This document shows, piece after piece, positions 4,637 to 62,451 of a DNA stretch of 64,000 bases (the stretch's first letter is position 1; each line of letters opens with the position of its first letter). The notes beneath the pieces were generated by a model, which saw only the letters and a program-made list of their open reading frames with translations, was not told the origin of the DNA and did no database searches. The translations under genes were made by a program, and so were the position numbers. Source of the stretch: Patescibacteria group bacterium (lineage in GTDB: Bacteria > Patescibacteriota > Patescibacteriia > 2-02-FULL-49-11); assembly GCA_041645165.1 (NCBI GenBank), contig JBAZQN010000007.1, positions 8,318 through 72,317 of the forward strand, read 5' to 3'.

Positions 4637-5137
4637 CTAACGCGCTATGGGTATTATAAACGCCCGATTCGCCCGATACGATCCCTTTCCATATTCTGCA
4701 GCGCCGTATTCGAGGGAAAAGGCAAGTTCATAATCGCCGCATGCATCGGTGCACTCTTCCGGCAACGCGCGGAATTGGTATGAATAGTTTTGATTAATAT
4801 CCGCGGGTATGGGATTTAAAAAAACAGCTGCTCCCTCGCCGCAACTCTCGTCTGATCCGAGAAACCCTTTTTGTGCAGATCCTGCACAGAGCTGCCCGCC
4901 GCCATCCTTTCCTAAGGTGACCTGATCACCCGCGGGAAAGGATCCCTGCTGTTTGAAATATTCCTGCAATGCCACGCGAATATCTTTTATATCATCCAAT
5001 CTTCCCCTATCGCGCGCTTCCGCCTGCTTCGACCTCACCCCCATCACCACCACCGCGCCAATAAAACAAAAAATAAGGACAAGACCAAGGTATTCCAAGA
5101 GTCTTTTTCGAGGAAGAATGATTGGCATATTAGACAC
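4637..5137 (-). CDS. type IV pilin/pseudopilin-like protein with a non-canonical N-terminus
   Basis: N-terminal hydrophobic helix followed by ARDRGRLDDIKDIRVALQEYFKQQGSFPAG, the conserved segment that follows the prepilin helix in type IV pilins. It lacks a canonical G-F-T-L-I-E cleavage motif. Confidence 0.4.
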   Translation of the reverse strand: MSNMPIILPRKRLLEYLGLVLIFCFIGAVVVMGVRSKQAEARDRGRLDDIKDIRVALQEYFKQQGSFPAGDQVTLGKDGGGQLCAGSAQKGFLGSDESCGEGAAVFLNPIPADINQNYSYQFRALPEECTDACGDYELAFSLEYGAAEYGKGSYRANRAFIIPIAR

Positions 5138-5690: not shown

Positions 5691-5826
5691 TTCTCAATTT
5701 TCAATTTCTCCCTCTTCGCGGGATCCCGCGTAGCGGGACAATCAATGTCGCAATGAATCAATTTTCAAACATTGCATCATTGATTCATTGAAAATTAATT
5801 GAAAATTGGTATTTGAAAATTGGAAA

Positions 5827-6783
5827 TTACTCACTGGGTTCTCCTACAATCTCCTTCCTCACCTCCTCCAAATACCCCACCACCATTTGTCGGCATAATT
5901 CCTGTTCCTCAACGCTTTCAATCGCCGCGCACTCCTCTACATTGCCCGTCACCAAGGCGCGGCAAAGCGCTTGCTGGCGTATGCTTTCAAATGCATTGCA
6001 TGACTCTGGCTGGCGCGCGTACGCGATGCAGAGGAATTTCAGCTGCGAGCTCTCAGGACTTACAGAATCACAAAAATCTGGGGGCAGCGTGTCACCCGCA
6101 CTCGCCGCGGCTATTGCCACTTGCGTAAAGCATGAATCGCGCTTGACCCCTTCTTCCTGCGTCTCGCAATAGGCAAGCGATTGGGTAAGCGCTGCGGAGA
6201 TATTCTCCTCCCCTCCCGCACCCGCAGGCGCGGACGAGTAAGTCACGTCAAGCGCCCCCCACGCCGCGATCCGCACGGCAACCAATACGCACACCGCAAC
6301 GATGAGCAATCTGCCGCTGCCTTTGTGAAAATCCTCATCTTCCTCTTGCGAAAAAAACCACTTGATTTGGAATAGCCCTATAAGCAGCACCACCAACGCC
6401 GTGATGCAGAGCAAAATGCCTGCGACAAACCCTGCGACCCACCACCTCCCCAGTTGTGAAGGCCATGAGGCCGCCGCAAAGCTCGTTCCCACTACGCTGG
6501 CCATCATGGCAACAACGACCTGCAGCACCATCAGCCCCCACCCCCACTTCTTGCGCTTCCACAGGCCCACTGCAGTAACAAGCACGAATACGCCTGCCAG
6601 AAATAATAACACCTTCAACTGCGGCGCAAGCGCCACGCTCGTGCGAACTCGCGCAAGGCTTATCACTGCCGCAGGCGCGAACGCAACCGCCAGCAGCGCT
6701 AATCCCGTCGCCGCGCGCTCGAGTGCCACTACCTTCACGCCCCATGCAATATTTAATTGTTTATGCATATCAGCGTAACACAT
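5827..6783 (-). CDS. polytopic membrane protein with a C-terminal 8-Cys domain, function unknown
   Basis: Several predicted TM helices followed by a Cys-rich tail (CETQ...CFTQ...CDSV...CIAY...CNAF...CRAL...CAAI...CRQM). The region is GC-rich, which produces long overlapping ORFs on both strands. Confidence 0.5.
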   Translation of the reverse strand: MCYADMHKQLNIAWGVKVVALERAATGLALLAVAFAPAAVISLARVRTSVALAPQLKVLLFLAGVFVLVTAVGLWKRKKWGWGLMVLQVVVAMMASVVGTSFAAASWPSQLGRWWVAGFVAGILLCITALVVLLIGLFQIKWFFSQEEDEDFHKGSGRLLIVAVCVLVAVRIAAWGALDVTYSSAPAGAGGEENISAALTQSLAYCETQEEGVKRDSCFTQVAIAAASAGDTLPPDFCDSVSPESSQLKFLCIAYARQPESCNAFESIRQQALCRALVTGNVEECAAIESVEEQELCRQMVVGYLEEVRKEIVGEPSE

Positions 6784-6834: not shown

Positions 6835-7045
6835 TAAATTAATCAGCCATATCCGTCTTATCCCATCCTATCCGACTTATCCGTTCCTATCCGATCCATT
6901 CCGCTTATCCGTCTTATCCCAATATCTCCGACTTATCCGTTCCTATCCGATCCATTCCGCTTATCCGTCTTATCCCACCTATCCGTCTTATCCCAACCTC
7001 TCAAATCTAATCAACCTATCAGACCTATTCTGACTTATCCGTCTT
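6835..7045. repeat. pyrimidine-rich TATCC-type repeat array phased at about 10 bp, including a ~57-bp tandem duplication
   Basis: cttatccgt / cctatccga / ccattccgc units recur roughly every 10-11 bp. gacttatccgttcctatccgatccattccgcttatccgtcttatccca occurs twice in tandem. Confidence 0.8.
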
Positions 7046-7112
7046 ATAATCCTATCCGCCACCTCTCGCCCACCTTTCAACTTCCAGCTTCTAACTTCTC
7101 CCACTTTCTCCT

Positions 7113-8039: not shown

Positions 8040-8240
8040 AATCCAACCACCGACTTACCCGTTCCTATTTCAACTTATCTCATCCCATCCGATCAATCCA
8101 ACTTATCCGTTCCTATCCGACCTATTCCACTTATCCAGATCTATTCCAGTCTTTGCAATCCAACCACCAACATATCCATTCCTATCCGTCCTATCCCATC
8201 CTATCCGACCTATCCACTCTTATCCGCCTTATAATCCTAT
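8040..8240. repeat. second TATCC-type phased repeat array
   Basis: ccgttcctat, cttatccgttcctatccgacctattccacttatcc and cctatccgtcctatcccatcctatccgacctatcc, homologous to 6835-7045. Confidence 0.75.
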
Positions 8241-8304
8241 CCGCCACCCCCATTCCATCCTCCAACTTCCAGCTTCTATATTCTAACTTCTCCTCTCGCT
8301 CCCT

Positions 8305-8618: not shown

Positions 8619-8817
8619 TAAAGCTTCAATTCAAAATCAATTACTCACTTCAATCTTCTAACTCCTATCTTCCATCTTCCAGCTTCTAAATTCTATCTTC
8701 AAGATTCCAACTTCCATCTTCCAACTTCCCTTTCCTCCACAACTCATCAACTCAAAAACTCACAAACTAACTAATTGACTGATCAACTGATAAACCGACC
8801 AACTGACAAACTGAAAA

Positions 8818-9477
8818 CTACTCCCTCACTCTCGGCACGAGCACGTTCCTCCGCCAGAGCTTGATGCCGCCCCAGCCGAACGCAAACCCGCCGATGTGGG
8901 CAAAAAATGCCACGCCGCCGCCCACGATGCCGAGGCTGCCGATGCCGGAGATAAATTGGAAAAAAATCCAGTACAGGAGCATCATGCGCGCGGGCACGGT
9001 TTCCCGCGACAGCATGAATCCCCATGTCCAGAGCACGTCAATCCGCTCATGGGGAAATAACACAAGATAGCCTCCCATCACGCCCGCGATCGCGCCCGAG
9101 GCGCCGAGCATTGGAATCGTGGAAGCAGGGCCCATGACGATTTGGAGCGCGCTCCCCGCAACACCTGCGGCCAAATAAAATATCAGGTACTTTACATGCC
9201 CCAACCGGTCTTCGAGGTTGTCCCCGAAAATGTTTAAAAACAGCATATTGCCGATGATGTGAGCAAATCCTCCGTGGAGAAACAGGGATGTGAAAAGGCT
9301 CACTAAATTCACGCCGCGGATAATGTCATAAGGCGTCACCGCATACCTTCCCACAAACGCCTCAAGCCCGCTGCCCAATGAGAGCATATACGCAAACACG
9401 GCCACATTCGCGCCGATGATGCCGTAAGTCACGTAAGGGAATTTGCCCGAAGGGGTATGATCGCGGATAGGAATCAT
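8818..9477 (-). CDS. rhomboid-family intramembrane serine protease
   Basis: Six TM segments, GASGAIAGVMG (GxSG catalytic Ser) and a C-terminal AHIGGFAFG catalytic His context. Confidence 0.8.
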   Translation of the reverse strand: MIPIRDHTPSGKFPYVTYGIIGANVAVFAYMLSLGSGLEAFVGRYAVTPYDIIRGVNLVSLFTSLFLHGGFAHIIGNMLFLNIFGDNLEDRLGHVKYLIFYLAAGVAGSALQIVMGPASTIPMLGASGAIAGVMGGYLVLFPHERIDVLWTWGFMLSRETVPARMMLLYWIFFQFISGIGSLGIVGGGVAFFAHIGGFAFGWGGIKLWRRNVLVPRVRE

Positions 9478-10130: not shown

Positions 10131-10290
10131 CCAGAAATCACCATACTCACGTAATCACTCAACCTACAAGCTTCCTCACCCTCACCTTTGTACTACCATC
10201 ACTAGGTCTCAAATCTTTCATCTACCTCTCTGTCCTATTCAAAATGACCAAATATCAATTATCAATAATAAAACTTATGCTGGATACAAG

Positions 10291-10324
10291 GACAATTAAT
10301 CTCACGATCGTGAAAATAATTGTT
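10291..10324. repeat. 34-bp palindrome family, copy A (GACAATTAATCTCACGATCGTGAAAATAATTGT)
   Basis: Perfect CACGATCGTG core flanked by inverted AT-rich arms. See copies at 13947, 14266, 14368, 14632 and 15342. Confidence 0.85.
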
Positions 10325-13836: not shown

Positions 13837-13946
13837 AAGCCCCCATTTCACCCTCTCCAATATCTTCTTTCTTCCCCTCTACCGCTTTCGTCCGCTTTCG
13901 TCCGTCTCAACCAGCACTAAAATCTAAACCAACACTAAAAACGAAA

Positions 13947-13980
13947 GACAATTAATCTCACGATCGTGAGGATAATGTCC
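13947..13980. repeat. 34-bp palindrome family, copy B
   Basis: gacaattaatctcacgatcgtgaggataatgtcc. Confidence 0.85.
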
Positions 13981-14045
13981 CTTCCTGTACATTACCTCTC
14001 TCGACAATATCACATTTCCATAAAATTTTCTGTCCATATTCATAT

Positions 14046-14215
14046 GAAGCTCCGCGGGCTTACACCCGCGGTGTCTTCCTCAACAGGAGATCCGGCGGAA
14101 TCCGCTTTAAGCTGCCTGCCGCCTTCGTCCCGACATGTTGGGACTTCGGCGGGTCCGCAATCCCGCATTCATCCGCGTATCTTACGCCCGCGGTTTTTTG
14201 CGGAGGCGGATAAAG
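14046..14215. repeat. ~170-nt hairpin-rich element, copy 1 of a two-copy family (candidate ncRNA or MITE)
   Basis: gaagctccgcgggcttacacccgcggtg ... cccgcattcatccgcgtatcttacgcccgcgg ttttttgcggaggcggataaa. It is homologous to 50570-50722, and the stems differ by paired, stem-preserving substitutions. Confidence 0.6.
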
Positions 14216-14265: not shown

Positions 14266-14304
14266 GACGACAATTAAAAATACGATCGTGACAATAATGT
14301 CCCC
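14266..14304. repeat. 34-bp palindrome family, copy C
   Basis: gacgacaattaaaaatacgatcgtgacaataatgtcccc. Confidence 0.8.
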
Positions 14305-14546: not shown

Positions 14547-14631
14547 CCTATTTCCCCTTCATCGCCAGTTCTTTCCATTTCTCGTATCTCACCTCTTCCC
14601 TCCACGCCCAATATTCTATACTATAAAGAGC

Positions 14632-14666
14632 GCAATTATTTTCACGATCGTGAAAATAATGTCCCT
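14632..14666. repeat. 34-bp palindrome family, copy E
   Basis: gcaattattttcacgatcgtgaaaataatgtccc, immediately 3' of the PaaX-like gene. Confidence 0.85.
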
Positions 14667-16207: not shown

Positions 16208-16302
16208 CAATTAATTTTCAATATCACAATGTTTGAACATTAGGTCATTGGGATTTATTTGAAAATTGAGAATTGAAAATTGAGAATTGAAAATTACACA
16301 TT

Positions 16303-17451
16303 ATGGATCCTCTCGAACAACAACTTAAATCCCTGAATTCCTCGCCTGCGAGCGAGCCTGATCCGCAGTGGGTGGCGAGCGCGCGCACGAAACTTGCGTG
16401 GACGATGGAATATCCAGTACAAGGAGCGCTACCGCGCGCCACTCCCCTGCCGCGCCTGCGCTTCGGGCTGCGCAGAATATGGATGACGGTTTCAATATCG
16501 CTCCTCGTGGTGCTCCTCCTAGGGTCAGGCATCACGTACGCGGCGCAGGGCGTCATGCCGGATAACATCCTCTATCCGGTAAAAATTGCAAGCGAAGAAG
16601 TTCTCCTTGGCGTCACCAAAGATCCCGTACAACGCACCAACCTTGAACTGCGGCTTGCCAACCGCCGCGTTGACGAACTCCAAGCACTCTCGCAATCGGA
16701 AACATTAGACGCAGACATTGCAGCAGAACTGCACGCGCGTTACCAAAAGCATATCACTGAAGTCCTGCAGGCACTTCCCACCATACCCCAAGACAAAGTG
16801 CAAACGGTCACGGAAACGCTTTCCCAAGATACAGAAGAGCACGCGCGCATTACGCAAGAGCTGGATGTGCGCGCCTCATCCGAGATCAAAGGAGAAATCA
16901 AAGCATCGGTAAAGGCATCACTTGAGCAGATGCGGCAATTCACCGAAGAAACCTCGCGCGCCGCTCACTACTTGAAAGAAAAGAGCAACCGGCCTACGAA
17001 ATGGAAGGTGAAGGTTGAGACGAACACGACAGGCGAAGCCCATGTAAAAGTTGAGACCGAAATGGGGAATAATGAAAAAAAGGAAAAACGCGAAATAGAG
17101 TTTCGTGCCACGCCGGGAGTGCCGCTCACCGTGACCTCAACCTGGCCCATGATAAAGGAGCGGCGCGAGAAAAAAAATGACGAGGAAACTGAAGATCAAG
17201 AGCCCTCACGCGTGCGCGCCACCACAACGATAATATTTGACCTTGACCAAGCGACCACCACCGTGCCTTCAAACACCATTGAACAGCTTGAAAAGATGAA
17301 ACGTATCCTCAATAAAGGATCCTTCTTCCAGTTCCAGTCCGATATGAGCGCGGAGGGCGGCAGCGTCGAACAGCGCGTGGAAACCGATATTAAAGGACAA
17401 TCACACATCCGCGTTGATTCACAGGAGGATTCTCAAGAGGACGATGATTGA
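16303..17451 (+). CDS. putative anti-sigma factor (N-terminal anti-sigma region, single TM, periplasmic DUF5667-like domain)
   Basis: Immediately downstream of the ECF sigma gene. TM segment ISLLVVLLLGSGITYAA, then a coiled, charged periplasmic region with a pattern typical of DUF5667. Confidence 0.45.
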   Translation: MDPLEQQLKSLNSSPASEPDPQWVASARTKLAWTMEYPVQGALPRATPLPRLRFGLRRIWMTVSISLLVVLLLGSGITYAAQGVMPDNILYPVKIASEEVLLGVTKDPVQRTNLELRLANRRVDELQALSQSETLDADIAAELHARYQKHITEVLQALPTIPQDKVQTVTETLSQDTEEHARITQELDVRASSEIKGEIKASVKASLEQMRQFTEETSRAAHYLKEKSNRPTKWKVKVETNTTGEAHVKVETEMGNNEKKEKREIEFRATPGVPLTVTSTWPMIKERREKKNDEETEDQEPSRVRATTTIIFDLDQATTTVPSNTIEQLEKMKRILNKGSFFQFQSDMSAEGGSVEQRVETDIKGQSHIRVDSQEDSQEDDD

Positions 17452-22564: not shown

Positions 22565-22796
22565 TTCAAATCCATAATTTTCAAGGTTCAATTTTGCAAT
22601 TTTTCCCCCGACTTGTCGGGGGATCCCGCTGCGGCGGGACAATCAATGTTACAATGATCCAATTTTCCAATGTTTGAAAATTGTCGCATTGAAAATTATT
22701 TGAAAATTGAGCACTGGGAATTGAAAATTATCAAGGTTGGGATTTATTTGGACACTGGACATTGGAATTTGGAAATTGAAATACACTCATTACTTT

Positions 22797-24107: not shown

Positions 24108-24202
24108 CTATTCACCTATTTCCGCCATAGGCGGACAAGCGCGCCTGCCCCGCTCGCCACGTTGCATAACTGTGGCCGCATGGCTGGGGCGAATTAGAGA
24201 AG
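24108..24202. repeat. ~95-bp direct repeat, copy 1 (ctattcacctatttccgccataggcggac...ggctggggcgaattagagaag)
   Basis: About 95% identical to 26699-26792. It contains the hairpins ccgccataggcgg and gcccc..gccac..gtggc..ggggc. Confidence 0.85.
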
Positions 24203-25225: not shown

Positions 25226-26593
25226 ATGAAAAAGAGAGTATTGTTTTTGCAATTCACGATCGGTACACTAGACCGTGGATATTGGAATCCTCTTGGTTTG
25301 GCTCCGCATGATTATTTCTACGCGGAGCCAGGTGTCGCTTGGGTGGCACAAGCGATCGCGGCCGACCACGAAGTCCAAGTGATCGACTGCGACTTCTTGA
25401 ACGATGAGGAAGTGTTGTCCTCAATCGCCCAATTTGGTCCCAATATCGTCGGATTTTCCTGCTTCACCGCAGGATATCCACGAGCACAGAGGATTACCTG
25501 GTTAATTAATTCGGCAATTGTGAAACTTTGGGGCGGTTGGCACGCATCAATGATCTCGGCGCAAGTGCTCGCGGAGAACCCAAATTCTATCGTAGTCAAG
25601 GGAAGAGGCGAGGGAGTTATTCGAGATATCGTGAATTCGCCCCGGCACTACACCGGAACAATTATCGATGGGAACGCGATTCCAGCGCCGCGACATTATC
25701 CCTTCTCCGTGGTTACGCGGACGCCGTATTTTAAATTCTTCGGCGTTCCACCGGAACAAAAAACAGCTTCTGTCGTTATTTGCGGAGGCTGCACTTTAGG
25801 GTGCAGCTATTGCCCATCGGCCAGATCTGGTCTCGGGTTTATGCGATCCCCTGAAGATATCATTCACGAAGTAATACAGCTCGAAGAACGAGGAGTCAAC
25901 TTTATCTTTGTTCGAGATGAAAATCCCTTCCTCCTCAAGTTTCGACCATGGTTGCTCCGCTTCTGTGATCTCGCCGAACGAACAATTCGTGGACGGGTTC
26001 AATTCCATTCATTCGGCGACGCACGCTTTGTCGACACAGAACTCGTTCAAGCACTGGCAGGAGCAGGATGGAGCGGTTTGGATATCGGGATAGAACACAT
26101 CACCGCTGCGGGTCGCAAACGCTTAGGAAGAAAACAGGACTGGTGGAAAACCGTCGAGGCGTTCGAAATGATGAAGAATAAGGGTTTATTTTTGACCGCA
26201 AATTTCATTGTCTGGGCTCCTGGAGATACTCTTAAAACATTTAACCAAACACTACTGGGTCTTAAGGAACTCCGACCTGACGAATTACTGCCGCTATTTT
26301 TCACTCCTTTACCAGGATTGGCCGATGGCAAGTTTGACAGTCTTCCAAGGCGAACCCAACGATTGGAGGATTTTCATTTTTTAAAACCAATTCTGGTAAA
26401 TGACGCACAAGTAACCGATGAGGAGCTCATCGTACAGAGGAAACTCCTCATGCGAAATTATTACTCTTCATCTGAATATATAGCTTTAATGAAATTCCGA
26501 AGACGACAATTCGGAGACCAGCGGTTCAAGAATCTCACCGCCATCCGCCGGCAAAGGTTCTTGAAATACGGCATTGATCTATGGAACCTTTAG
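25226..26593 (+). CDS. B12-binding-domain radical SAM enzyme (class B rSAM family)
   Basis: N-terminal cobalamin-binding Rossmann-like domain and the CxxxCxxC motif CTLGCSYC in the radical SAM core. Strong RBS aaaaggag. Confidence 0.7.
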   Translation: MKKRVLFLQFTIGTLDRGYWNPLGLAPHDYFYAEPGVAWVAQAIAADHEVQVIDCDFLNDEEVLSSIAQFGPNIVGFSCFTAGYPRAQRITWLINSAIVKLWGGWHASMISAQVLAENPNSIVVKGRGEGVIRDIVNSPRHYTGTIIDGNAIPAPRHYPFSVVTRTPYFKFFGVPPEQKTASVVICGGCTLGCSYCPSARSGLGFMRSPEDIIHEVIQLEERGVNFIFVRDENPFLLKFRPWLLRFCDLAERTIRGRVQFHSFGDARFVDTELVQALAGAGWSGLDIGIEHITAAGRKRLGRKQDWWKTVEAFEMMKNKGLFLTANFIVWAPGDTLKTFNQTLLGLKELRPDELLPLFFTPLPGLADGKFDSLPRRTQRLEDFHFLKPILVNDAQVTDEELIVQRKLLMRNYYSSSEYIALMKFRRRQFGDQRFKNLTAIRRQRFLKYGIDLWNL

Positions 26594-26688: not shown

Positions 26689-26698
26689 ACTATTCCCC

Positions 26699-26792
26699 TA
26701 TTCCCCTATTTCCGCCATAGGCGGACATGCGCGCTCGCCCCGCTCGCCACGTTGCATAACTGTGGCCGAATGGCTGGGGCGAATTAGAGAAG
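26699..26792. repeat. ~95-bp direct repeat, copy 2
   Basis: ctattcccctatttccgccataggcggacatgcgcgctcgccccgctcgccacgttgcataactgtggccgaatggctggggcgaattagagaag. Confidence 0.85.
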
Positions 26793-49329: not shown

Positions 49330-50523
49330 TCAATCAAATGTAGCCAGAACTTGAGGCCAATCGCGCCAGCCGAGCACGGAAGCGGCCTGGCGCTTCTGCG
49401 TTTGTTCTCCCCCATACACAATATACGACGAAGCGGCCTGCTTGGATATGGCACGGTAATACGCAATCCCGTCAAAAAATTCTGATGCTACGGTCTGGCC
49501 GGATTTGATTTCAATCGGCAGTAACCCTCCATGACGCTCAATAACCAGGTCAACTTCGTGGCCGGTTTTGTCCCTCCAAAAAAACGCCCGAGGCACAAGC
49601 CCGCGGTGAAAACGGTGCTTTAACCACTCCGCGATCACCATTGATTCAAAAATCCCTCCTCTCAAGTAATGGCTTTTGAGTTGACTGGCCTGTGTAATAT
49701 GGAGAAGGGCGCACAACACGCCCGTATCATAAAAATAAATTTTTGGCGTTTTCACCACCCGTTTATTAAAATTCCTGTGATGCGGCTGCAATAAGAAAAT
49801 AATGAAGCTCGCTTCCAGGATGGAGAGCCACGCCTTCACGGTTGCCTGATTAATGCCGCAATCGTTGCCAAGCGAGGTGATATTAAGGAGTTGGCCAACC
49901 CGTGCCGCTACGAGCTGTAAAAATTTTCTAAAAGTGCTGAGGTTTTCGATATTTTTAATCAGCCGCACGTCGCGCTCCACATAGGTCTGAATATAATTTT
50001 GGTAATAACTGGATGCGTCCATCTTTTGATCAAATAGCTTAGGGTAGAATCCCTTCAATAGTACTTCCTCAATCGTTATCCGAGTAAACCCCTTATACGC
50101 TTCGGCCAATTCTTCAAGCGCAAGCGGCAGCAAATGCGCGATGGCAACCCGGCCGGCAAGCGACTGGGTAATGCCTTCCAGCAATAAAAAATTCTGTGAG
50201 CCGGTCAAAATATACTGGCCGTTCTTGCGTGTTTCGTCCGCGATTGTTTGCAAGAGGGAAAAAAGCTTAGGCACCCGCTGCGCTTCATCAATCACCGCCC
50301 CGTCCGCATACTGGCCAAGCAGGCCTTTCGGATCCTTTTCAGCAAACTCCCTCGTTTCCAGATCTTCAAGGTTGAGGTAAGGTTTAGTGGGGAAAAGGGA
50401 TCTGACGAGGGTAGTTTTGCCAGACTGTCGAGGACCTGTCACGGCAACGACCGGATAGTGTCGAGTGTATTCTTTAATTTTTTTCGCTAGGGTTCTCTTA
50501 ATCATGTTATTATGATACTCCAC
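49330..50523 (-). CDS. AAA+ ATPase (AAA_14 plus DUF4143 family)
   Basis: Walker A GPRQSGKTT, Walker B AVIDEAQ, and a C-terminal DUF4143-like region. Confidence 0.75.
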   Translation of the reverse strand: MEYHNNMIKRTLAKKIKEYTRHYPVVAVTGPRQSGKTTLVRSLFPTKPYLNLEDLETREFAEKDPKGLLGQYADGAVIDEAQRVPKLFSLLQTIADETRKNGQYILTGSQNFLLLEGITQSLAGRVAIAHLLPLALEELAEAYKGFTRITIEEVLLKGFYPKLFDQKMDASSYYQNYIQTYVERDVRLIKNIENLSTFRKFLQLVAARVGQLLNITSLGNDCGINQATVKAWLSILEASFIIFLLQPHHRNFNKRVVKTPKIYFYDTGVLCALLHITQASQLKSHYLRGGIFESMVIAEWLKHRFHRGLVPRAFFWRDKTGHEVDLVIERHGGLLPIEIKSGQTVASEFFDGIAYYRAISKQAASSYIVYGGEQTQKRQAASVLGWRDWPQVLATFD

Positions 50524-50569
50524 TTGGACAAATCTGTCAATTGAGTATAAGATTTGTCAAAACGCACGT

Positions 50570-50722
50570 GAAGCTCCACGGCTTTACCGCCGTGGCATCT
50601 TCACGTTCTTCGGCGGAACCCGCCGAAGCGTATCCGCCTTCGCTTGAAGGCTACGGCGGATTACCCGCATCGCATTCATCCACCCCGCCATGGCGGGGTG
50701 GCTTTCTGCGGAGGCGGGTAAA
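50570..50722. repeat. ~155-nt hairpin-rich element, copy 2 of the family seen at 14046-14215 (candidate ncRNA or MITE)
   Basis: gaagctccacggctttaccgccgtgg ... cccgcatcgcattcatccaccccgccatggcggggtgg ctttctgcggaggcgggtaaa. Every stem is complementary within the copy, and the stems differ from copy 1 by paired changes. Confidence 0.6.
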
Positions 50723-50907
50723 ATTTACCATCAGAGGCCTTCATTTTCAGTTGGTCACATTTTGTGACTAGTGCCGTAACAATTTAATTATGCCATATCA
50801 CTGGCGTGTTTTGAGCAGTATTTACAGGGAGATTTGGCACTATGCATGTTGCGAAACTTAATTGTTACGGTACTAGGCCGCAAACCGCGGCGCCCTCCCC
50901 TTTCTCG

Positions 50908-51639
50908 CTATTTTTCCCCAAGAAAGCTTACGATTTTCTGCTCAAGGATTTTACGGAAATCTTTAAGATGCATGACATGGCTTGCGGGTAAAAATTCCCG
51001 AAGTTCGCCGCGGAAATTGATCTTGGATTTCTTCAATAAAGCAAGAACTTGAGTGAGATCGTCTTTTTCCTTCACCAATGGATAGTTTCCCGAAAGCAAA
51101 AAGAAATAATCGTAAAAATCCCTTGGTTTATGACGATTGATAAGTGCTTTCATTTTACCTTTAATGATTTCTTCTTTCGGTAAATGGACAAGGGTATAGG
51201 GCTGAATATAGTCATTTTCAATCAGCGTTCTGACGCCCCTAATCCAATTGTCATTGCGCAGAGAAACCTCAAAATAAATTTCAGTGATTTTATCGTAGGC
51301 GCTAAATTCAAATATGCCCAAGTATCCTCCGGTTGTGTATTTCCCTTCTTTGAGGGAAACGTGGATACCGGTCTTCTCGATATTGGCCAAGGTATTGATA
51401 AAAAGTTTCTCAACTTTATGTTTGGCAATTTTCACACCGGTAAAATCAAGATCTTCTGAAAAACGAGGACTATGGAAAACAATCCGCAAAGCTGTGCCGC
51501 CCTTGAAGAGCAGACGATCCGCATCGGGCAATTGGTAAAGATACGACAAAAACAAGTGCTGGCAATATTCTCGAACGACATTTCCGAGTTTAGTTTGCGT
51601 GTGATCAGTAAATTTTTGGAGGTTTGCGCGTGTCAACAT
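50908..51639 (-). CDS. AbiEii/AbiGii-family nucleotidyltransferase toxin (type IV TA)
   Basis: GGTALRIVFHSPRFSEDLDFT is the DUF1814/AbiEii signature. Confidence 0.7.
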   Translation of the reverse strand: MLTRANLQKFTDHTQTKLGNVVREYCQHLFLSYLYQLPDADRLLFKGGTALRIVFHSPRFSEDLDFTGVKIAKHKVEKLFINTLANIEKTGIHVSLKEGKYTTGGYLGIFEFSAYDKITEIYFEVSLRNDNWIRGVRTLIENDYIQPYTLVHLPKEEIIKGKMKALINRHKPRDFYDYFFLLSGNYPLVKEKDDLTQVLALLKKSKINFRGELREFLPASHVMHLKDFRKILEQKIVSFLGEK

Positions 51640-52231
51640 ACATTTGCTTGATACGCTTTAACATACCCGGCCTCTTGAACAGTTTTGCATATTCAATCAG
51701 TTTCGGCCTGTCAATGTTCCGCAGTTTCAAACGATCATTCAGGGACACTTTTTTGAGATCAACAAAATACAGATAATCAGCCAGCGCCTTTTCCGGCTCG
51801 GCAATCAAAACTTTATAACGATCGACTTCCCGTAATTCATAACCGGTGAATGCCTCGGTTTTAATATGACGATAAGTGAAATTCCCGATTGGCGTTTCAA
51901 ATTCCCTGGAAGTTTTAGTGGTTATTGAAGTATTTCCATACACCACTTCTGGAATAATTTTATAATAAGATAGCGCCGTTTCCAGCGAGACATAAGATGG
52001 CTGATAAAGCTTGTTCGCGATAAAAAAGTAATCCGGGTGGCTGTCTTTAATTGTATAAAAATTATTGCGCAACTTTACAAAAAGACCGCTCGTTAAATTC
52101 GAGGAAATAAAATTAGCCGCTCTTTTCAAGGACACATTGAAAACGCCCTTGAATTCTTGTGGAGTAAACACCTCTAATCCTATTTTTTTAAGTTTTTCTT
52201 CCACTTCTATACGTTTCAGTTTTAGTGCCAT
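51605..52231 (-). CDS. AbiEi-like antitoxin / transcriptional regulator
   Basis: It is immediately upstream of and overlaps the AbiEii gene. Length and composition are typical of AbiEi. Confidence 0.6.
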   Translation of the reverse strand: MALKLKRIEVEEKLKKIGLEVFTPQEFKGVFNVSLKRAANFISSNLTSGLFVKLRNNFYTIKDSHPDYFFIANKLYQPSYVSLETALSYYKIIPEVVYGNTSITTKTSREFETPIGNFTYRHIKTEAFTGYELREVDRYKVLIAEPEKALADYLYFVDLKKVSLNDRLKLRNIDRPKLIEYAKLFKRPGMLKRIKQMYVDTRKPPKIY

Positions 52232-57279: not shown

Positions 57280-58085
57280 TTATTCACTACTCTGGGTCTT
57301 TTCTAATCCAACCGCCAAGAAAACCGAATCCTGTCTTAAGAACTGACCAATATTCTGCTTGTAGTACCTGGCGTTCGCATACGTCAAACTGGTGTCCCTG
57401 TCATACATGTGCCCTGTAAACTTCCTCTGTTCGTCGAAGGAGCCTGATTTCCAGTCAATCCTCATTGATCCGTAGGGGTAGTAGTCCAATAATTGTACCA
57501 TGCCTCCGGTGCTATTCGTAGCGACGTTAGAACCCGTCAGATGATCCGTGTGGATGTATTGGAGGGTTGAGCCTTCCACTGTGGCAACCAGCTGGCTTCC
57601 TGCGTAGATATGCTTACTATTCTTCGTCCCATCGCTATTATACAGCTTATTCGCATACCGCGTCGTCACGCTTCCTGAAACCAGTTTCGTCCTCTGGCCT
57701 GTATGGTCGTACTGATAGGTGACGGTGGAACCTGTTTTCTGGGATTGGGTCAGCTGGTTGGCGTAGTTCCATGAGTGAGTCCAGGTGGAATCAGAGGTCA
57801 GGTTGCCGTTGTTATCATACGCGTAGGTCACGCCGTTGACCGACGTTGCCGCATGGGGGTTCGCGTAATTGGTGCCTTGGTAGAGGTAAGCCCCGACATC
57901 TGACTTGTTAGAGATGTTGCCGATGGCGTCGTAGGAATACGTTTGCGTGAAGTTTCCTGGACTGGTGGATGTGGCGTTGGTGGCGATAGCGGAGGTAAGG
58001 CGATGCAGATCATCATAGGCATGGGTGATGGTATCCGCGTCTGGCTCTGCATTTGGCGCGATTGCGGGGGCTATTTCGTCGAATA
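57280..58085 (-). pseudogene. RHS/YD-repeat C-terminal fragment, truncated and frameshifted remnant
   Basis: 57280-57831 encodes YDHTGQRTK...YANARYYKQNIGQFLRQD but stops right after the RHS core. 57828-58052 continues in another frame. The DNA is near-identical to 59200-59640 and 61590-62040. Confidence 0.55.
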
Positions 58086-58129
58086 AATCTTATTAAGGTA
58101 TTTGCCCCCTTATCTATACTCAACTTCAC

Positions 58130-58417
58130 TCAATCAATCATAATGCCTATATTATGCAATTGTTTCTTTGGGTCCCAATTTTCTGGTTCATTGTCTATCT
58201 TATCTCTCCATGGCATTCCCTCCTCTATCCACTTTTTACGCAATTCCAAATGCCGTTTCTCGCGCTCTTGCGCAGTCTTACCGAAATCATGATATCCATA
58301 TTGTATATGACAACATGGGCAAATATTATCGGACTGACTGTCTCCCTTCCATGCAGGCTCATGATAAACCGAATATATATCGTACCCGCATACCGGGCAA
58401 TAAGAATCGTTAGTCAT
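58130..58417 (-). CDS. small Cys-rich (zinc-ribbon-like) protein, candidate immunity protein
   Basis: CPVCG...CPCC. Its start is 3 nt after the stop of the upstream RHS-CT cassette. Confidence 0.4.
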   Translation of the reverse strand: MTNDSYCPVCGYDIYSVYHEPAWKGDSQSDNICPCCHIQYGYHDFGKTAQEREKRHLELRKKWIEEGMPWRDKIDNEPENWDPKKQLHNIGIMID

Positions 58418-58420
58418 ATC

Positions 58421-59656
58421 TCATTCCTTAATAACGTTATCAACTTTATTCCAATCAACCAACTCGCCTTGTTGGTTATTCCAATAATCCAGATTTGTTC
58501 CTTGTCCATGAACGGCAGGGTCTGGTTTGAAGAACGTCCTGATAGTGCCGTCCGGATTGTAGGAACCGAGCGTGTTCGCTGCTTCGTCATAGACTCTGAC
58601 AATGCCATCTTTATCAATCTTAGTCGGCAACTTATCGCTCTGTGCTCTCTGAAGAAAGTCGCGAGCCAAATCTGTATATTCGTCAGCGCTCCGAGCGCCG
58701 AATTCGCTAGCATGGTCCAAGTAATGTTCTTTATATTTTGTAGGGCTGGCCCACGCCTTAGCTCCTTTCAACCCTTTCGACGCATCCGCCACATTATCGA
58801 AGTGGCCCGCAACGAGTCTCGCTGCCTTACCGTATCCGCCTCCAACGGATAGAAGCCCAATGCCTACGCCTGCAAGAGTAATACTCTTCTGAATTTTGGT
58901 CGAGTTTGGATTAAGCCAAGTCTTTACGAGATCATAGACGTCCCAGACCGTAAAACCCGCTTCAACTGCAAGGTACATTAATCCTGCGATACTGAATGTA
59001 ACCGGTTCAGTGCCGAACGGGTCAATATATTTCATCGGATTATTATTCGCGTATGCATAGCTGTTCAATCCTTGTGGATTGCTCAACAGTGCTGCCGACT
59101 GCGCTCCATCTCGAACACCAATAGTAAGATACACGGGATCCTGTGATAAGAACCGTCCAATCCCCTGCTTGTAATACCTCGCATTGGCATACGTTAAACT
59201 GGTATCCCTATCAAACTCATGCCCCGTGAACTTCCTCTGTTCGTCGAAGGAGCCTGACTTCCAGTCAATCCTCATTGATCCGTAGGGATAGTAGTCCAAT
59301 AATTGTACCATGCCTCCACTACTGTTCGTAGCGGCGTTCGAGCCGGTGAGGTGGTCGGTATGGAGGTATTGAAGTGTCGTACCCTCGACTGTTCCTATGA
59401 GCTGGCTTCCTGCGTAGATATGCTTGGTTGCCGTGGTTTGCTTGATATTGTAGAGCTTGTTGGGATAGTGGCGGGCATAGCCGCTCACGCCGTCATAGTA
59501 CTTGGTCCTTTGCCCTGTGTGGTCGTATTGGTAGGTGACGGTGGAGCCTGTTTTCTGGGACTGGGTAAGCTGGTTAGCGTAGTTCCAAGTGTGAGTCCAC
59601 GTCGAATCTGACGTGAGATTGCCGTTGTTGTCATACGCGTAGGTCACGCCACCCAC
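58421..59656 (-). CDS. orphan RHS C-terminal cassette: RHS core plus a distinct C-terminal toxin domain of unknown type
   Basis: YDHTGQRTKYYDG...DRDTSLTYANARYYKQGIGRFLSQDPV (RHS repeat-associated core), then a ~230-aa unrelated C-terminal domain ending HGQGTNLDYWNNQ. Confidence 0.6.
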   Translation of the reverse strand: MGGVTYAYDNNGNLTSDSTWTHTWNYANQLTQSQKTGSTVTYQYDHTGQRTKYYDGVSGYARHYPNKLYNIKQTTATKHIYAGSQLIGTVEGTTLQYLHTDHLTGSNAATNSSGGMVQLLDYYPYGSMRIDWKSGSFDEQRKFTGHEFDRDTSLTYANARYYKQGIGRFLSQDPVYLTIGVRDGAQSAALLSNPQGLNSYAYANNNPMKYIDPFGTEPVTFSIAGLMYLAVEAGFTVWDVYDLVKTWLNPNSTKIQKSITLAGVGIGLLSVGGGYGKAARLVAGHFDNVADASKGLKGAKAWASPTKYKEHYLDHASEFGARSADEYTDLARDFLQRAQSDKLPTKIDKDGIVRVYDEAANTLGSYNPDGTIRTFFKPDPAVHGQGTNLDYWNNQQGELVDWNKVDNVIKE

Positions 59657-59696
59657 TGACGTTGCCGCGTGGGGATTGGCGGTTTCAGTGTCGGAA

Positions 59697-60233
59697 TCAA
59701 TTTTCGGTGCTTGTTATTGTATTATTCGGATTAAAGTATTTTTTATTCTTAAACAGTCCTATTAATAACACAATAAAGACTAAGAAATAAATGCCAAAAT
59801 TTACCGCCATGCCCACCGGAGAAAAAGTAAAATCAAGCGCTTCCTGACGTACCGCAAGTCCACGCGCCTCACGACTTATAATATATGCGTCCTTTGCCAA
59901 ATCGACATGAGTGAATGAAATGACAAACATGACTACCGTAAAGAATAAATAAAGAACAATACCCGCCACAGCTATTGGGAAGGCTCGTGGATATTGTTTA
60001 AATACAAAGACCGCTGCACTACCCGTAACAATCAATACCGCGAGAGCAAAGACTATATACAATACACCGAATCCAAAATTATTTAGTATATTGTAGTCGG
60101 ATACCGTTTGATAGCGGAGAAGATCGAAAAGTGTGCGTACGAACAACCAAACTAATACGATTATAAGAATCGTGATAATTTTGGGCCGTTTTGACTGCGT
60201 ACTGACCTGTGAATTTGTGACCGTTTGTTCCAT
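59697..60233 (-). CDS. four-TM membrane protein, function unknown
   Basis: Hydrophobic segments only. Confidence 0.4.
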   Translation of the reverse strand: MEQTVTNSQVSTQSKRPKIITILIIVLVWLFVRTLFDLLRYQTVSDYNILNNFGFGVLYIVFALAVLIVTGSAAVFVFKQYPRAFPIAVAGIVLYLFFTVVMFVISFTHVDLAKDAYIISREARGLAVRQEALDFTFSPVGMAVNFGIYFLVFIVLLIGLFKNKKYFNPNNTITSTEN

Positions 60234-60248
60234 ATGATTTTTTGTAGA

Positions 60249-60842
60249 TTACCACATCCGTTCGAATTCGGTGGATTTTATCAATTCTAAATTGGTGAGC
60301 TTAGCGCTTTCGAGCGCCTCTGCAACACGTTCTGTGACGAATCTTACACCTGTACCTTCCGCAAGGAAAATATCGCTTCCGTCCCACATTTTGAGATCGA
60401 AGTAATATCCATATCGTGCACGATATGATCCGTACTTCTCACTTGCAGGTACCTGCACCCACTCACTTTTACTATCATCAATGGGTCCACACTTACCCGT
60501 CACTACAAGCCCGCTATATCCTGACACTTCCTCTCTTTTTTTATTAAAAACTCTTGCCGGGAAAGTTGACCAGCCGGTGAACCTTCCCTTCTTCAACACT
60601 TCGACTACTCTATCGCTGATTAGGAGAATGGGAGGGTTTGCCGACATGAAGTCCTTTGGCCGTGTGCCGCCATTATGACCGAAGATCACGGGCTTTGCTG
60701 AACCTTCCTTTCCAGCAAGCAAGTCGAAGTCGTATTGTACCTTATCTTTGACTCTTTCAGGATACTCCTTAACATATTGGCTCATCGCGCCATATTCTAT
60801 CCCCGCTCCTAGAAGGTAAAATTGGTCTGGAGTGTATGCCAT
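60249..60842 (-). CDS. candidate immunity protein for the AHH toxin
   Basis: Its start codon is 1 nt after the toxin stop. The longer annotated ORF (to 61133) would overlap the toxin by 290 nt, so the internal MAYTPDQF start is preferred. Confidence 0.45.
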   Translation of the reverse strand: MAYTPDQFYLLGAGIEYGAMSQYVKEYPERVKDKVQYDFDLLAGKEGSAKPVIFGHNGGTRPKDFMSANPPILLISDRVVEVLKKGRFTGWSTFPARVFNKKREEVSGYSGLVVTGKCGPIDDSKSEWVQVPASEKYGSYRARYGYYFDLKMWDGSDIFLAEGTGVRFVTERVAEALESAKLTNLELIKSTEFERMW

Positions 60843-60843
60843 A

Positions 60844-62451
60844 TTATTCAATCTTAAAATCAATCCTATACTTCTCGGCTGTTTCATTCGCAAAATTATG
60901 TATCTGCTCTTGCGAAGCGTTTGGATTTTTACTGATAAACTTCTCCCACCTTGCATTATACTCGTTTGATAACTTCTGATGTGTCCCATCCGGTCCCTTC
61001 TGCCACCATGAACCGTACTTGGGATCATGGACATTAATACCGGCTCGCTCAAAGAATCCTCTAAAATTTTCCGTTTGCGGCAACATATGGTGCGCGTCGA
61101 ACCCGCTCCCCGGATTCTTTCCAGTGAGTTCAATTAAGTTACCCCTGAAATGCCCTGAGGTAAAACTCTTAAAGTTCATCGCTCTGTCGACCGCTTTTGC
61201 TGCGTCACTCGCCTTATCCGCAACCCTCGTCACCCGTGCCGCTGCTCCCAACCCGGTCGCGAAAGGAATAGCGGCGCCGCCAATATCAAGCCCCAGGCTC
61301 AACATTTCTCCCTTCACGTCTCCTCCATGAGCAATCGCACCACCTAATTTGTAAAGATCGTACGCGATGAAGCCGATATCAATAAAGGTATCAAGAAACT
61401 CACCTCCCTTGTCAACATACTTGAGAGGATTGTTGGTGACGTAAGAGTAAGAATTGAGGTATTGAGGATTGGAGAGATACTCTCGCATCCTCATGTTCGT
61501 TCCTTGTTGGATTGCCTGCTCGTCCCCGATAGAGAGGAATACGGGATCCTGCGACAGGAAACGCCCTATGTTCTGCTTATAATACCTCGCATTGGCGTAG
61601 GTAAGACTGGTGTCTCTATCGAACTCATGCCCCGTGAACTTCCTCTGCTCGTCGAAAGAGCCTGATTTCCAGTCTATCCTCATGCTGCCATACGGGTAGT
61701 AGTCCAATAATTGTACCATGCCTCCACTGCTGTTCGTAGCGACGTTCGAGCCAGTGAGGTGGTCGGTATGGAGGTATTGGAGGGTTGAGCCTTCCACGGT
61801 GGCAATCAGTTGACTTCCGGCGTAGATGTGCTTGGTTGCCGTGGTTTGCTTGATATTGTAGAGCTTGTTGGGATAGTGGCGGGCATAGCCGCTCACGCCG
61901 TCATAGTACTTGGTCCTTTGCCCTGTGTGGTCGTATTGGTAGGTCACGGTGGAGCCGCCTGTGGATTGGGTAAGCTGGTTAGCGTAGTTCCAAGTGTGAG
62001 TCCACGTCGAATCTGACGTGAGATTGCCGTTGTTGTCATACGCATACACGGCAGAGCCGACTTTTGTCACTGCATGAGGGTTGGCGTAATTGGTGCCTTC
62101 ATAGAGATACGTGCCTTGGTCAGATGCCGTGAGAATATTCCCAATCGCGCTGTAGGTGTACGTTCTTCCGGTGTTATCGCCATTCGCCGCGCCGGTAATT
62201 GAAGAGGTCAAAAGCCTATGCAAATCGTCGTAGGTATAGGTGATGGTCTTGCCTGCGTTGGTGCTGGACGCTTCTACGATCTGAGTGATATTCCCCACCT
62301 GGTCGTATGACCATTCTTGAGGTATCACATTTTTACGATCGTTAGCTTTTGATACCTCTGCATCATCACTTGCAATCCACCCCCTATCAATAACGATCGC
62401 TATATATTGGAAGTGGATATGAACGAGTATTGAACGCCATAATGCTCTCAC
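60844..62451 (-). CDS. RHS/YD-repeat protein (C-terminal portion) with an AHH-family HNH-like nuclease toxin domain
   Basis: YD repeats (TYTYDDLHRL, YAYDNNGNLT, YQYDHTGQRT), the RHS core (DRDTSLTYANARYYKQNIGRFLSQDPV) and C-terminal GSGFDAHHMLPQ (the AHH motif). Confidence 0.6.
   Translation of the reverse strand: MRALWRSILVHIHFQYIAIVIDRGWIASDDAEVSKANDRKNVIPQEWSYDQVGNITQIVEASSTNAGKTITYTYDDLHRLLTSSITGAANGDNTGRTYTYSAIGNILTASDQGTYLYEGTNYANPHAVTKVGSAVYAYDNNGNLTSDSTWTHTWNYANQLTQSTGGSTVTYQYDHTGQRTKYYDGVSGYARHYPNKLYNIKQTTATKHIYAGSQLIATVEGSTLQYLHTDHLTGSNVATNSSGGMVQLLDYYPYGSMRIDWKSGSFDEQRKFTGHEFDRDTSLTYANARYYKQNIGRFLSQDPVFLSIGDEQAIQQGTNMRMREYLSNPQYLNSYSYVTNNPLKYVDKGGEFLDTFIDIGFIAYDLYKLGGAIAHGGDVKGEMLSLGLDIGGAAIPFATGLGAAARVTRVADKASDAAKAVDRAMNFKSFTSGHFRGNLIELTGKNPGSGFDAHHMLPQTENFRGFFERAGINVHDPKYGSWWQKGPDGTHQKLSNEYNARWEKFISKNPNASQEQIHNFANETAEKYRIDFKIE

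Follow-up and report, generated by a model that had tools for sequence, protein, structure and literature searches.

The stretch of DNA analysed here (the window) covers 64,000 nt of a Patescibacteria (candidate phyla radiation, CPR) metagenome-assembled genome (MAG), and two of its intergenic regions each hold a copy of the same hairpin-rich, gene-less element. Copy 1 occupies 14044-14209 (166 nt) and copy 2 occupies 50568-50717 (150 nt). The first-pass annotation had placed two intergenic copies at these sites; both are present there and lie between genes, and their coordinates were refined, with the boundaries set by comparison across the family and by one empty site (in radA). The ends described as common to the two copies (TGAAGCTCC..., ...GCATTCATCC... 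and ...TGCGGAGGCGGRTAAA) occur in both, and the quoted stem sequences are correct. Two interpretations had also been offered, an RNA that folds and a mobile element that depends on hairpins. The evidence presented below supports selection on a folded strand and favours the mobile element, and it speaks against a conventional small RNA (sRNA) gene.

Copy 2 is located between a gene for a DUF4143 AAA ATPase and the AbiEii/AbiEi toxin–antitoxin pair (window 49330-52231). It lies 45 nt upstream of the ATPase gene, which is divergently transcribed, and 190 nt beyond the 3' end of the AbiEii gene; of the proposed position upstream of both the AAA+ ATPase and the AbiE genes, only that 5' of the ATPase holds. 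The covariance-model search proposed earlier was run with a model trained on 10 family members, and in the window it scored copy 2 at 154.5 bits and copy 1 at 111.7 bits, with the runner-up at 14 bits (filters off). The window therefore contains exactly two copies, with a match far beyond chance. Neither short-motif searches nor the unfiltered model revealed further copies in the window; one near-match, at 43722, lies inside a coding sequence and is unrelated to the element.

A folded element and its relatives

Folding of the two copies gives a common four-part architecture. It consists of P1, a 5' hairpin clamped by GAAGC/CUUC; H2, a small hairpin of the form CUUCGGCGG-AAC-CCGCCGAAG; P3, a bipartite helix; and a 3' domain, in which GCAUUCAUCC and CUUUCUGCGG stand on either side of a hairpin named P4b. 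The folding energy is -78.3 kcal/mol for copy 1 (z = -4.2) and -87.5 kcal/mol for copy 2 (z = -8.3), and none of 200 shuffled sequences folded as well as the real copies. The reverse strands fold about equally, with similar z-scores. The hairpins P1 and P4b have stems of 8-9 bp in a CC...GG form, show compensatory changes and are often near-identical within a copy.

About 35 homologues were collected from Patescibacteria, Desulfobacterota, Nitrospirota, Omnitrophota, Verrucomicrobiota and metagenomes, with an element size of 130-220 nt, typically ~150 nt. Those from GTDB genomes were found by pattern scans anchored in the 3' domain and belong to Desulfatiglandales, Nitrospiraceae, Omnitrophota, Verrucomicrobia, two "Proteobacteria" MAGs, Peregrinibacteria, two Kerfeldbacteria and one Patescibacteria MAG; further members came from metagenome contigs. 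Among the carrier MAGs are VMFU01 (Peregrinibacteria), JACQKH01 and JACRFM01 (Kerfeldbacteria) and DATKZQ01 (Desulfatiglandales). A scan of IMG/VR anchored in H2 returned 41 loci, only 2 of them true members, and the left-end pattern had 0 matches in IMG/VR. Phage and plasmid collections searched with blastn in distant mode gave no match. Because the search patterns demanded CATTCATCC and GCGGAGGCGG, these two blocks are invariant in the alignment by construction; two members found through the H2 anchor carry GCGUAGGCGG in place of the imposed blocks. Based on their first bases, the homologues fall into two subfamilies, one starting with (R)UGAAGC (mostly CPR) and the other with UGGAGC.

Compensatory change was assessed in 28 distinct homologues. 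In these, 80% of helix cells are paired, vs 36-48% after sliding the partners by 1-3 columns, double changes occur in 31 of 52 pairs, and 0/500 shuffles reach the observed covariation values. The helix pairs also rank at the top of an independent mutual-information scan. The earlier claim that the internal stems keep their pairing by paired substitutions is thus borne out, and the random, stem-breaking substitutions that had been named as its opposite are not what the ~35 homologues show. Stem-preserving substitutions across the homologues support selection on a folded single strand. As to which strand, two tests disagree. In the well-supported helices, G.U exceeds A.C on the plus strand by about 64 to 20, whereas the minus strand is the more stable one in 28/34 members with RNA parameters and in 30/34 with DNA parameters.

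Anatomy of the minus strand and its guide and target bases

In IS608 of Helicobacter pylori, the left cleavage site (CL, TTAC) lies outside the insertion sequence (IS), 19 nt 5' of the foot of the left hairpin (PMC5934647; PMC3201880). The left guide (GL, AAAG) is formed by the 4 nt directly 5' of the foot of the left subterminal hairpin (IPL); the right cleavage site (CR) is TCAA and the right guide (GR) is GAAT (PMC5934647). The sites are recognized by pairing with the guides, the left guide chooses the target, and excision is scarless, with no target duplication (PMC3201880; PMC5934647). Both guide/cleavage pairs of IS608 fit a scheme in which C1 pairs with G2, C2 with G1 and C4 with G4, with an unpaired A at C3.

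The first-pass annotation had taken both copies as plus-oriented; the transposon signals are read on the minus strand instead. On that strand the members have the layout TTAY ^ CCGCCTCCGCAG - AA(A/G)R - hairpin ... G(A/G)T(G/A) - hairpin - 4 nt - (T/C)CA(C/T) ^, in which ^ marks the borders of the element, the spacer CCGCCTCCGCAG is 12 nt long, and P3 and H2 form an internal module between the left hairpin and the right guide. The end signatures are TTAY ^ CCGCCTCC...hairpin on the left and hairpin...YCAY ^ on the right; on the plus strand, each element is followed by R-U-A-(A/G)-A. Inspection of the ends GTGRAGC... and ...GGAGGCGG shows that they do not form inverted repeats. In the two copies of the window, these features are placed as follows.

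Copy 1
14044-14209, minus strand (the presumed top strand): whole element, left end at 14209 and right end at 14044
14210-14213, minus strand: flanking target and left cleavage site CL, or transposon-associated motif (TAM), TTAT (ATAA on the plus strand), outside the element
14198-14209, minus strand: left spacer, 12 nt between GL and the element tip
14194-14197, minus strand: left guide GL, AAAA, directly 5' of the IPL foot; GL4:CL4 is A:T
14173-14193, minus strand: left subterminal hairpin IPL (stem 3 of the first-pass annotation), CCGCGTATCTTACGCCCGCGG, from folding and from compensatory changes in helix 10
14119-14152, no strand assigned: internal helix P3, CCGCC...GGCGG with an inner hairpin
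14094-14106, no strand assigned: internal hairpin H2, GGCGG-AAU-CCGCU; complementarity exists between the 3' half, 14100-14106, and 14205-14211 (the tip of the element and 2 nt of flank)
14072-14075, minus strand: right guide GR, GACA (reverse complement of the plus letters)
14052-14071, minus strand: right subterminal hairpin IPR (formerly stem 1), CCGCGGGCTTACACCCGCGG, with double changes in 6/8 pairs of helix 2
14044-14047, minus strand: right cleavage site CR, TCAT

Copy 2
50568-50717, minus strand: whole element, left end at 50717 and right end at 50568
50718-50721, minus strand: flanking target CL (TAM), TTAC (GTAA on the plus strand), outside the element
50702-50705, minus strand: left guide GL, AAAG
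50680-50701, minus strand: IPL hairpin, CCACCCCGCCATGGCGGGGTGG, from folding
50632-50661, no strand assigned: internal helix P3, from folding and covariation
50608-50628, no strand assigned: internal hairpin H2, CTTCGGCGG-AAC-CCGCCGAAG; positions 50618-50624 are complementary to 50713-50719, the tip plus 2 flanking nt
50596-50599, minus strand: right guide GR, GATG (reverse complement of the plus letters)
50576-50595, minus strand: IPR hairpin, CCACGGCTTTACCGCCGTGG, from folding
50568-50571, minus strand: right cleavage site CR, TCAC

The same geometry is found across the family. The distance from the target to the IPL foot is 16 nt in all 30 members that could be parsed. The left cleavage site is TTAC in 15 of these, TTAT in 10 and CTAC in 3, so that TTAY accounts for 25/30, and its third base is A in 29/30. 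GL1 and GL2 are A opposite a target T in 25-26/30 members, and the fourth pair, GL4:CL4, is G:C in 18, A:T in 7 and G.T in 2. In the alignment designated A3, where the same pair reads CG in 16 members and UA in 6, CL1:GL2 becomes C:G in two members with the CTAC target, and the three guide-target pairs are 90% paired, vs 54-65% when slid; 0/500 shuffles reach this value. The concordant switch of guide and target bases is seen in both subfamilies and also between the two copies of the window (TTAT with AAAA in copy 1, TTAC with AAAG in copy 2). The search patterns ended inside the element and did not include the flank, so its conservation was not selected for. The element does not bring its flanking base along, so that the covariation of this base with an internal one is a prediction of guide-directed target choice.

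The flank is also involved in a second pairing. The 3' strand of H2 and the left tip with two target bases form a long-range helix of 7 bp, in which 96-99% of cells are paired and the flank position switches from C:G (17) to U:A (8). On the minus strand, the H2 segment GGCGG-R-T pairs with the left end over its first five bases and with the last two bases of the target, and this segment covaries with the target base. This pairing could serve synapsis, act as an extended guide or belong to an RNA such as an omega-RNA. In P3 (helices 6 and 7), double changes occur in 9/10 pairs.

At the right end, 18 members could be compared. CR1:GR2 is T:A in 6 and C:G in 9, CR2:GR1 is C:G in 15/18, CR4:GR4 is a Watson-Crick pair in 13 with a T.G wobble in 2 more, and CR3 is A in 18/18. 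The same bases can also pair as a plain extension of the hairpin stem (helix 1), so the right end is compatible with the IS608 scheme and is not proof of it.

One homologous locus, L147 (loci are designated here by L numbers), carries two copies, arranged in tandem 93 nt apart (8980-9369). The upstream one is without the 3' half of the left-end hairpin and looks like a decaying copy. The target base and the guide base differ concordantly between the two.

Insertion sites and the proposed mechanism

The minus-strand target TTAY reads RTAA when seen from the plus strand, so a gene that ends with ...NNR TAA offers a target. In 6 of 12 UGAAGC-type copies, a real upstream gene stops exactly at the first UGA of the element; these genes encode Ctp protease, RadA, PIG-L deacetylase, a 1016-aa protein, a VirB2-like pilin and a phosphoesterase. 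Removal of the element from the six loci leaves an open reading frame (ORF) followed by TAA. None of about 15 UGGAGC-type copies is placed in this way. It is proposed that after insertion the reading frame would run into bases 2-4 of the element. In the CPR-type subfamily, these bases are UGA, which would give an immediate stop and leave the protein unchanged; in the other subfamily they are UGG, and the protein would be extended. As judged from these sequences, the difference between UGA and UGG can explain the split of 6/12 against none.

The radA locus L021 allows the insertion to be compared with an empty site. It reads ...GGT AGG ^ TGAAGC...GGCGGG ^ TAA, followed by ATG. Three relatives, with RadA 76-79% identical in amino acids, keep the radA-x-recG synteny and do not have the element, and in them radA stops after the same residue, reading CGG TAA. 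The element of L021 therefore stands exactly between the last sense codon and the original TAA, and no sequence is duplicated. Such a comparison was also considered for the Ctp protease of L010; its relatives are only about 60% identical and their C-termini vary, hence this case is uninformative. For the sites of the window copies, a look for alternative contigs yielded at most one of 1.6 kb, which ends short of the site. Further data concern movement of whole copies. The elements of L016 and L076 are 95.6% identical over 160 nt, and the 800 nt flanking them on each side are unrelated. In the closest relative of the window's host (77% identity in purC/E), the synteny purB-purCE-PaaX-sigma70-DUF5667 is kept and copy 1 is absent.

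The mechanism that would account for these data assumes a Y1 (HUH) transposase TnpA, encoded elsewhere, which mobilises the element as single-stranded DNA (ssDNA) by "peel and paste". The cleavage sites would be read not by the protein itself, rather through guide pairing (C1:G2, C2:G1, C4:G4), as in IS608. Cleavage sites read by guides would lead the element to pick TTAY targets and to insert 3' of them without duplication. The TAA stop codon would be a frequent and harmless landing site, at which the (R)UGA start of the CPR-type elements supplies an in-frame stop at once.

In an IMG/VR contig (L176, 7793-8000), a predicted ORF of 1776 aa contains the element within its 5' end. A signal-peptide-like start (AUG GCG GUG AUU UUA GCG...) is found 2 nt after the TAM, and the true start of this ORF is probably there.

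Mobile DNA or RNA

Considering all the data, we propose that the copies are gene-less, non-autonomous elements of the IS200/IS605 type, similar to palindrome-associated transposable elements (PATEs) or miniature inverted-repeat transposable elements (MITEs), presumably moved as ssDNA by a TnpA encoded elsewhere and perhaps still active today. We put the probability of this at roughly 0.68. They would represent a new family of a known kind, that of PATE-like elements. A mobile element is favoured by the covariation with the flank, the IS608-like geometry, the scarless empty site, the placement at TAA and the near-identical copies with unrelated flanks. If the proposal is correct, the proper annotation of the copies is mobile DNA rather than sRNA. 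The family would then be a compact natural case of target choice directed by a DNA guide, with guide and target bases switching together across independent insertions, and it would show how a tiny transposon can survive in compact CPR genomes through landing at TAA with its own UGA. Its spread across phyla would mark gene flow among groundwater and sediment bacteria.

Several observations weigh against this proposal. A tblastn search of 1.37 Mb of loci, with an IS200 TnpA sequence as the query, found no Y1 TnpA, none of TnpA, TnpB and IscB is encoded among the 30 window ORFs scanned in Pfam, and no autonomous parent element was recovered. Copy number looks low, with 2 copies in 64 kb here and a single exact-pattern match per genome in 11 GTDB genomes. 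The homologues were gathered with patterns anchored in the left end and are a biased sample. The radA locus is the sole empty-site comparison, and its relatives have at most 79% protein identity, with intergenic DNA that cannot be aligned past the stop codon. At the right end, guide pairing is confounded with the extension of the stem. The excess of G.U is on the plus strand, opposite to the presumed top strand, and the minimum free energy (MFE) points the other way. Finally, compensatory changes are kept in H2 and P3, helices that a bare PATE does not need.

The last point concerns the internal module, for which a tentative and rather doubtful idea can be put forward. The module may be a second, natural extended guide that would hold or select the junction of TTAY and tip in ssDNA, a counterpart of the engineered extended-guide IS608, or it may act as RNA, either omega-like or as a plus-strand structure in the 3' untranslated region that spares insertions at stop codons. 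The element would then be a stop-codon-homing, self-terminating mini-transposon common to CPR and other phyla. If the main proposal holds, the internal module is a place to seek either a natural extended guide or an omega-RNA acting in trans, which would be relevant to retargetable ssDNA transposases.

In a more specific form of the RNA idea, the element would be a PATE with an omega-RNA of its own, which a TnpB/IscB nuclease encoded elsewhere would use in trans. P3, H2 and IPR would be its minus-strand scaffold, and the right flank would be the guide, directing cleavage of the empty donor joint at the TTAY TAM. PATEs "often encode omega-RNAs" that act in trans (PMC10055086). Such a role would give a reason for the compensatory changes in internal helices that TnpA should not need, the scaffold of about 130-150 nt would end exactly at the right cleavage site, and the higher stability of the minus strand (28/34 members by MFE) fits it as well. 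However, the excess of G.U is on the plus and not on the minus strand, no TnpB or IscB gene is found near about 35 copies or among the scanned window ORFs, the Rfam models for HEARO and IS605-orfB are unmatched on both strands, and evidence for a promoter is lacking. We consider a PATE with an omega-RNA of this kind unlikely.

The G.U excess on the plus strand, together with the strong covariation in P1, P3 and P4b, would fit a stand-alone, trans-acting sRNA gene. Such a gene, about 155 nt long and built of four helices and a pseudoknot, would belong to a new, horizontally spread family and be protein-binding or ribozyme-like, its transposon features being coincidental. The 7-bp helix between the 3' strand of H2 and the 3' end speaks for it as well. 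The databases leave room for such a family: Rfam 15 gave 0 matches over the whole window at the gathering threshold and only chance-level matches over both copies at E <= 10; the comparison with 6S, OLE, HEARO, ROOL and OMEGA-RNA-like models, suggested in the first-pass annotation, yielded no matching family, and full-text searches of the literature found no description of a similar RNA. In some members, -10-like boxes are seen upstream, or terminators made of a hairpin and a T-run downstream. Such a promoter and terminator of the element's own failed the control on two strands, since the scores are much the same on both: the mean promoter score is 6.1 vs 6.2, and terminators occur in 2/32 vs 3/31, with no enrichment of either. 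The sRNA gene is further contradicted by the covarying 3' partner (the R of GGCGG-R-UAA), which is outside the unit common to near-identical copies and covaries with another internal position too, as expected from the IS608 rule. Syntenic sites of close relatives do not have the element, and the element starts exactly at the stop codons of unrelated genes. A partner gene is also lacking; within 4 kb of 33 copies the ORFs share no family, and neighbour orientation is mixed, with the downstream gene convergent about as often as co-oriented. An sRNA gene is for these reasons distinctly improbable. If the elements were nevertheless not mobile, they would constitute a new and widespread family of pseudoknotted RNA, absent from Rfam.

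The gene context also refutes a cis-regulatory leader or riboswitch, in which the 3' helix would sequester the GGAGG Shine-Dalgarno sequence of the downstream gene. GGAGG does stand 7-9 nt before AUG or GUG in some members (copy 1, L027, L019, L021 and L045), but a suitably placed start codon is found in about 7/33, which is the chance level, about half of the downstream genes are convergent, and their functions are unrelated; GGAGG was moreover imposed by the search pattern, and two members found with the other anchor have GUAGG. A short coding segment or C-terminal extension by UGA read-through can be dismissed altogether: the stretch from UGA to UAA is open and a multiple of 3 in several copies (copy 2, L010, L042 and L021), but the length between the opening UGR and the closing UAA, taken modulo 3, is 0 in 10 members, 1 in 9 and 2 in 7, stops inside the stretch are frequent, the frame in which the conserved H2 block is read varies between members, and the substitutions in stems are compensatory.

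Other known elements were considered as well. An integron attC site requires cores of the type RYYYAAC...GTTRRRY, and the ends GTGRAGC and GGCGG ^ RTAA are, by inspection, not complementary. A SECIS-like element, group I or II intron, REP/RAYT, IS110 bridge RNA and retron non-coding RNA were dropped because defining features or an adjacent gene are lacking.

Surroundings of the copies and comparison with known systems

Just outside the left end of copy 1, at window 14257-14230 on the minus strand, there is a near-consensus sigma-70 promoter (TTGAAA-16-TATAAT, 11/12) directed into the element. This promoter could drive a minus-strand transcript of copy 1. In the same region, a palindromic motif of 28-33 nt (CAATTAATCTCACGATCGTGAGGATAAT) is present. 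It occurs at window 10288-10320, 13944-13976, 14266-14298 and 14628-14660, with a weak instance at 58970-59002, and its spacings around copy 1 are 322 and 362 nt. It is found twice (about 4855-4885 and 5015-5045) in L152, the syntenic intergenic region of the closest relative without the element. The palindrome looks like an operator or a bidirectional terminator. Genes of toxin-antitoxin or restriction systems are neighbours in several homologues, namely VapC (L002), a ParE-like gene (L020) and a restriction-modification methylase (L016); the family tends towards variable genome regions.

The window contains other repeats. A GC-rich direct repeat of 95 nt, with two copies (24108-24202 and 26698-26792) that are 95% identical, brackets a gene for a B12-binding radical-SAM protein (25226-26593) and may be another small mobile or regulatory element. 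Pyrimidine-rich, short-period arrays (TATCCGNCTTATCCC..., CTTCCAGCTTCTAA...) lie between genes at 6850-7100, 8076-8290 and 8644-8727. A/T-rich repeats (TGAAAATTGAGAATTGAAAAT), each after a common block of ~40 nt, are found just upstream of ORFs at 5733-5843, 16219-16303 and 22634-22792 and may be a common promoter or regulatory region. Three paralogous RHS-repeat genes (57280-62451) share blocks of 300 nt and 180 nt that are 81-85% identical.

When the element is compared with known systems, the structured RNAs (6S, OLE, the HEARO/IscB omega-RNA and ROOL) resemble it in being multi-helix, GC-rich and covarying structures in AT-richer intergenic DNA; they differ from it in size and architecture, and here there is no associated protein gene. 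The REP/BIME sequences (repetitive extragenic palindromes and their mosaics) and REPINs, which are processed by the Y1 HUH protein RAYT (TnpA-REP), are also GC-rich extragenic hairpins, often located at gene 3' ends. In contrast to our element, REPs are single hairpins of 20-40 nt with a 5' tetranucleotide of the GTAG type, present in tens to hundreds of copies and flanking one RAYT gene, none of which was seen here. Small selfish repeats of compact genomes, such as the Rickettsia palindromic elements (RPEs) and the Correia, ERIC and BOX MITEs, are tolerated since they do not disturb the host's reading frame or expression. The element described here would resemble them in tolerated insertion, provided in this case by a built-in UGA at a TAA target. 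Those repeats are palindromes over their whole length, or MITEs that bear terminal inverted repeats and produce target duplications; the element has neither.

A closer counterpart is given by PATEs, which are gene-less IS200/IS605 derivatives mobilised in trans (PMC10055086). The likeness to them, and to the mini IS605 of Geobacillus stearothermophilus that consists of omega-RNA only, lies in the keeping of only the ends, mobilisation in trans and a structured non-coding part that may remain (PMC10055086). Described PATEs usually occur in many copies per genome beside the parent IS, unlike the family studied here, with its apparently low copy number and no parent found.

IS608 differs from the element in carrying tnpA and tnpB, where the whole element here has 130-220 nt and its transposase would act from elsewhere. 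The spacings are 16 and 8 nt here vs 19 and 10 in IS608, the conserved internal module (H2 and P3), with an H2 able to pair over 7 bp with the left tip and the last two target bases, is particular to the element, and its family spans several phyla including CPR. The similarities concern the ends. In both, one strand has subterminal hairpins at its two ends, a left cleavage tetranucleotide lies outside the element (TTAC in IS608, TTAY here), a guide of 4 nt is found directly 5' of the left hairpin foot (AAAG in IS608, AA(A/G)R here), with a counterpart, putative in our family, at the right foot, and the right cleavage site (TCAA in IS608, the putative YCAY here) is inside the element, 3' of the hairpin. 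The two also share the scheme C1:G2, C2:G1, C4:G4 with A at C3, to which the right end of our family is compatible, the lack of inverted terminal repeats and of target duplication, and the scarless empty site, and copy 2 of the window has exactly the combination of TTAC and AAAG known from IS608.

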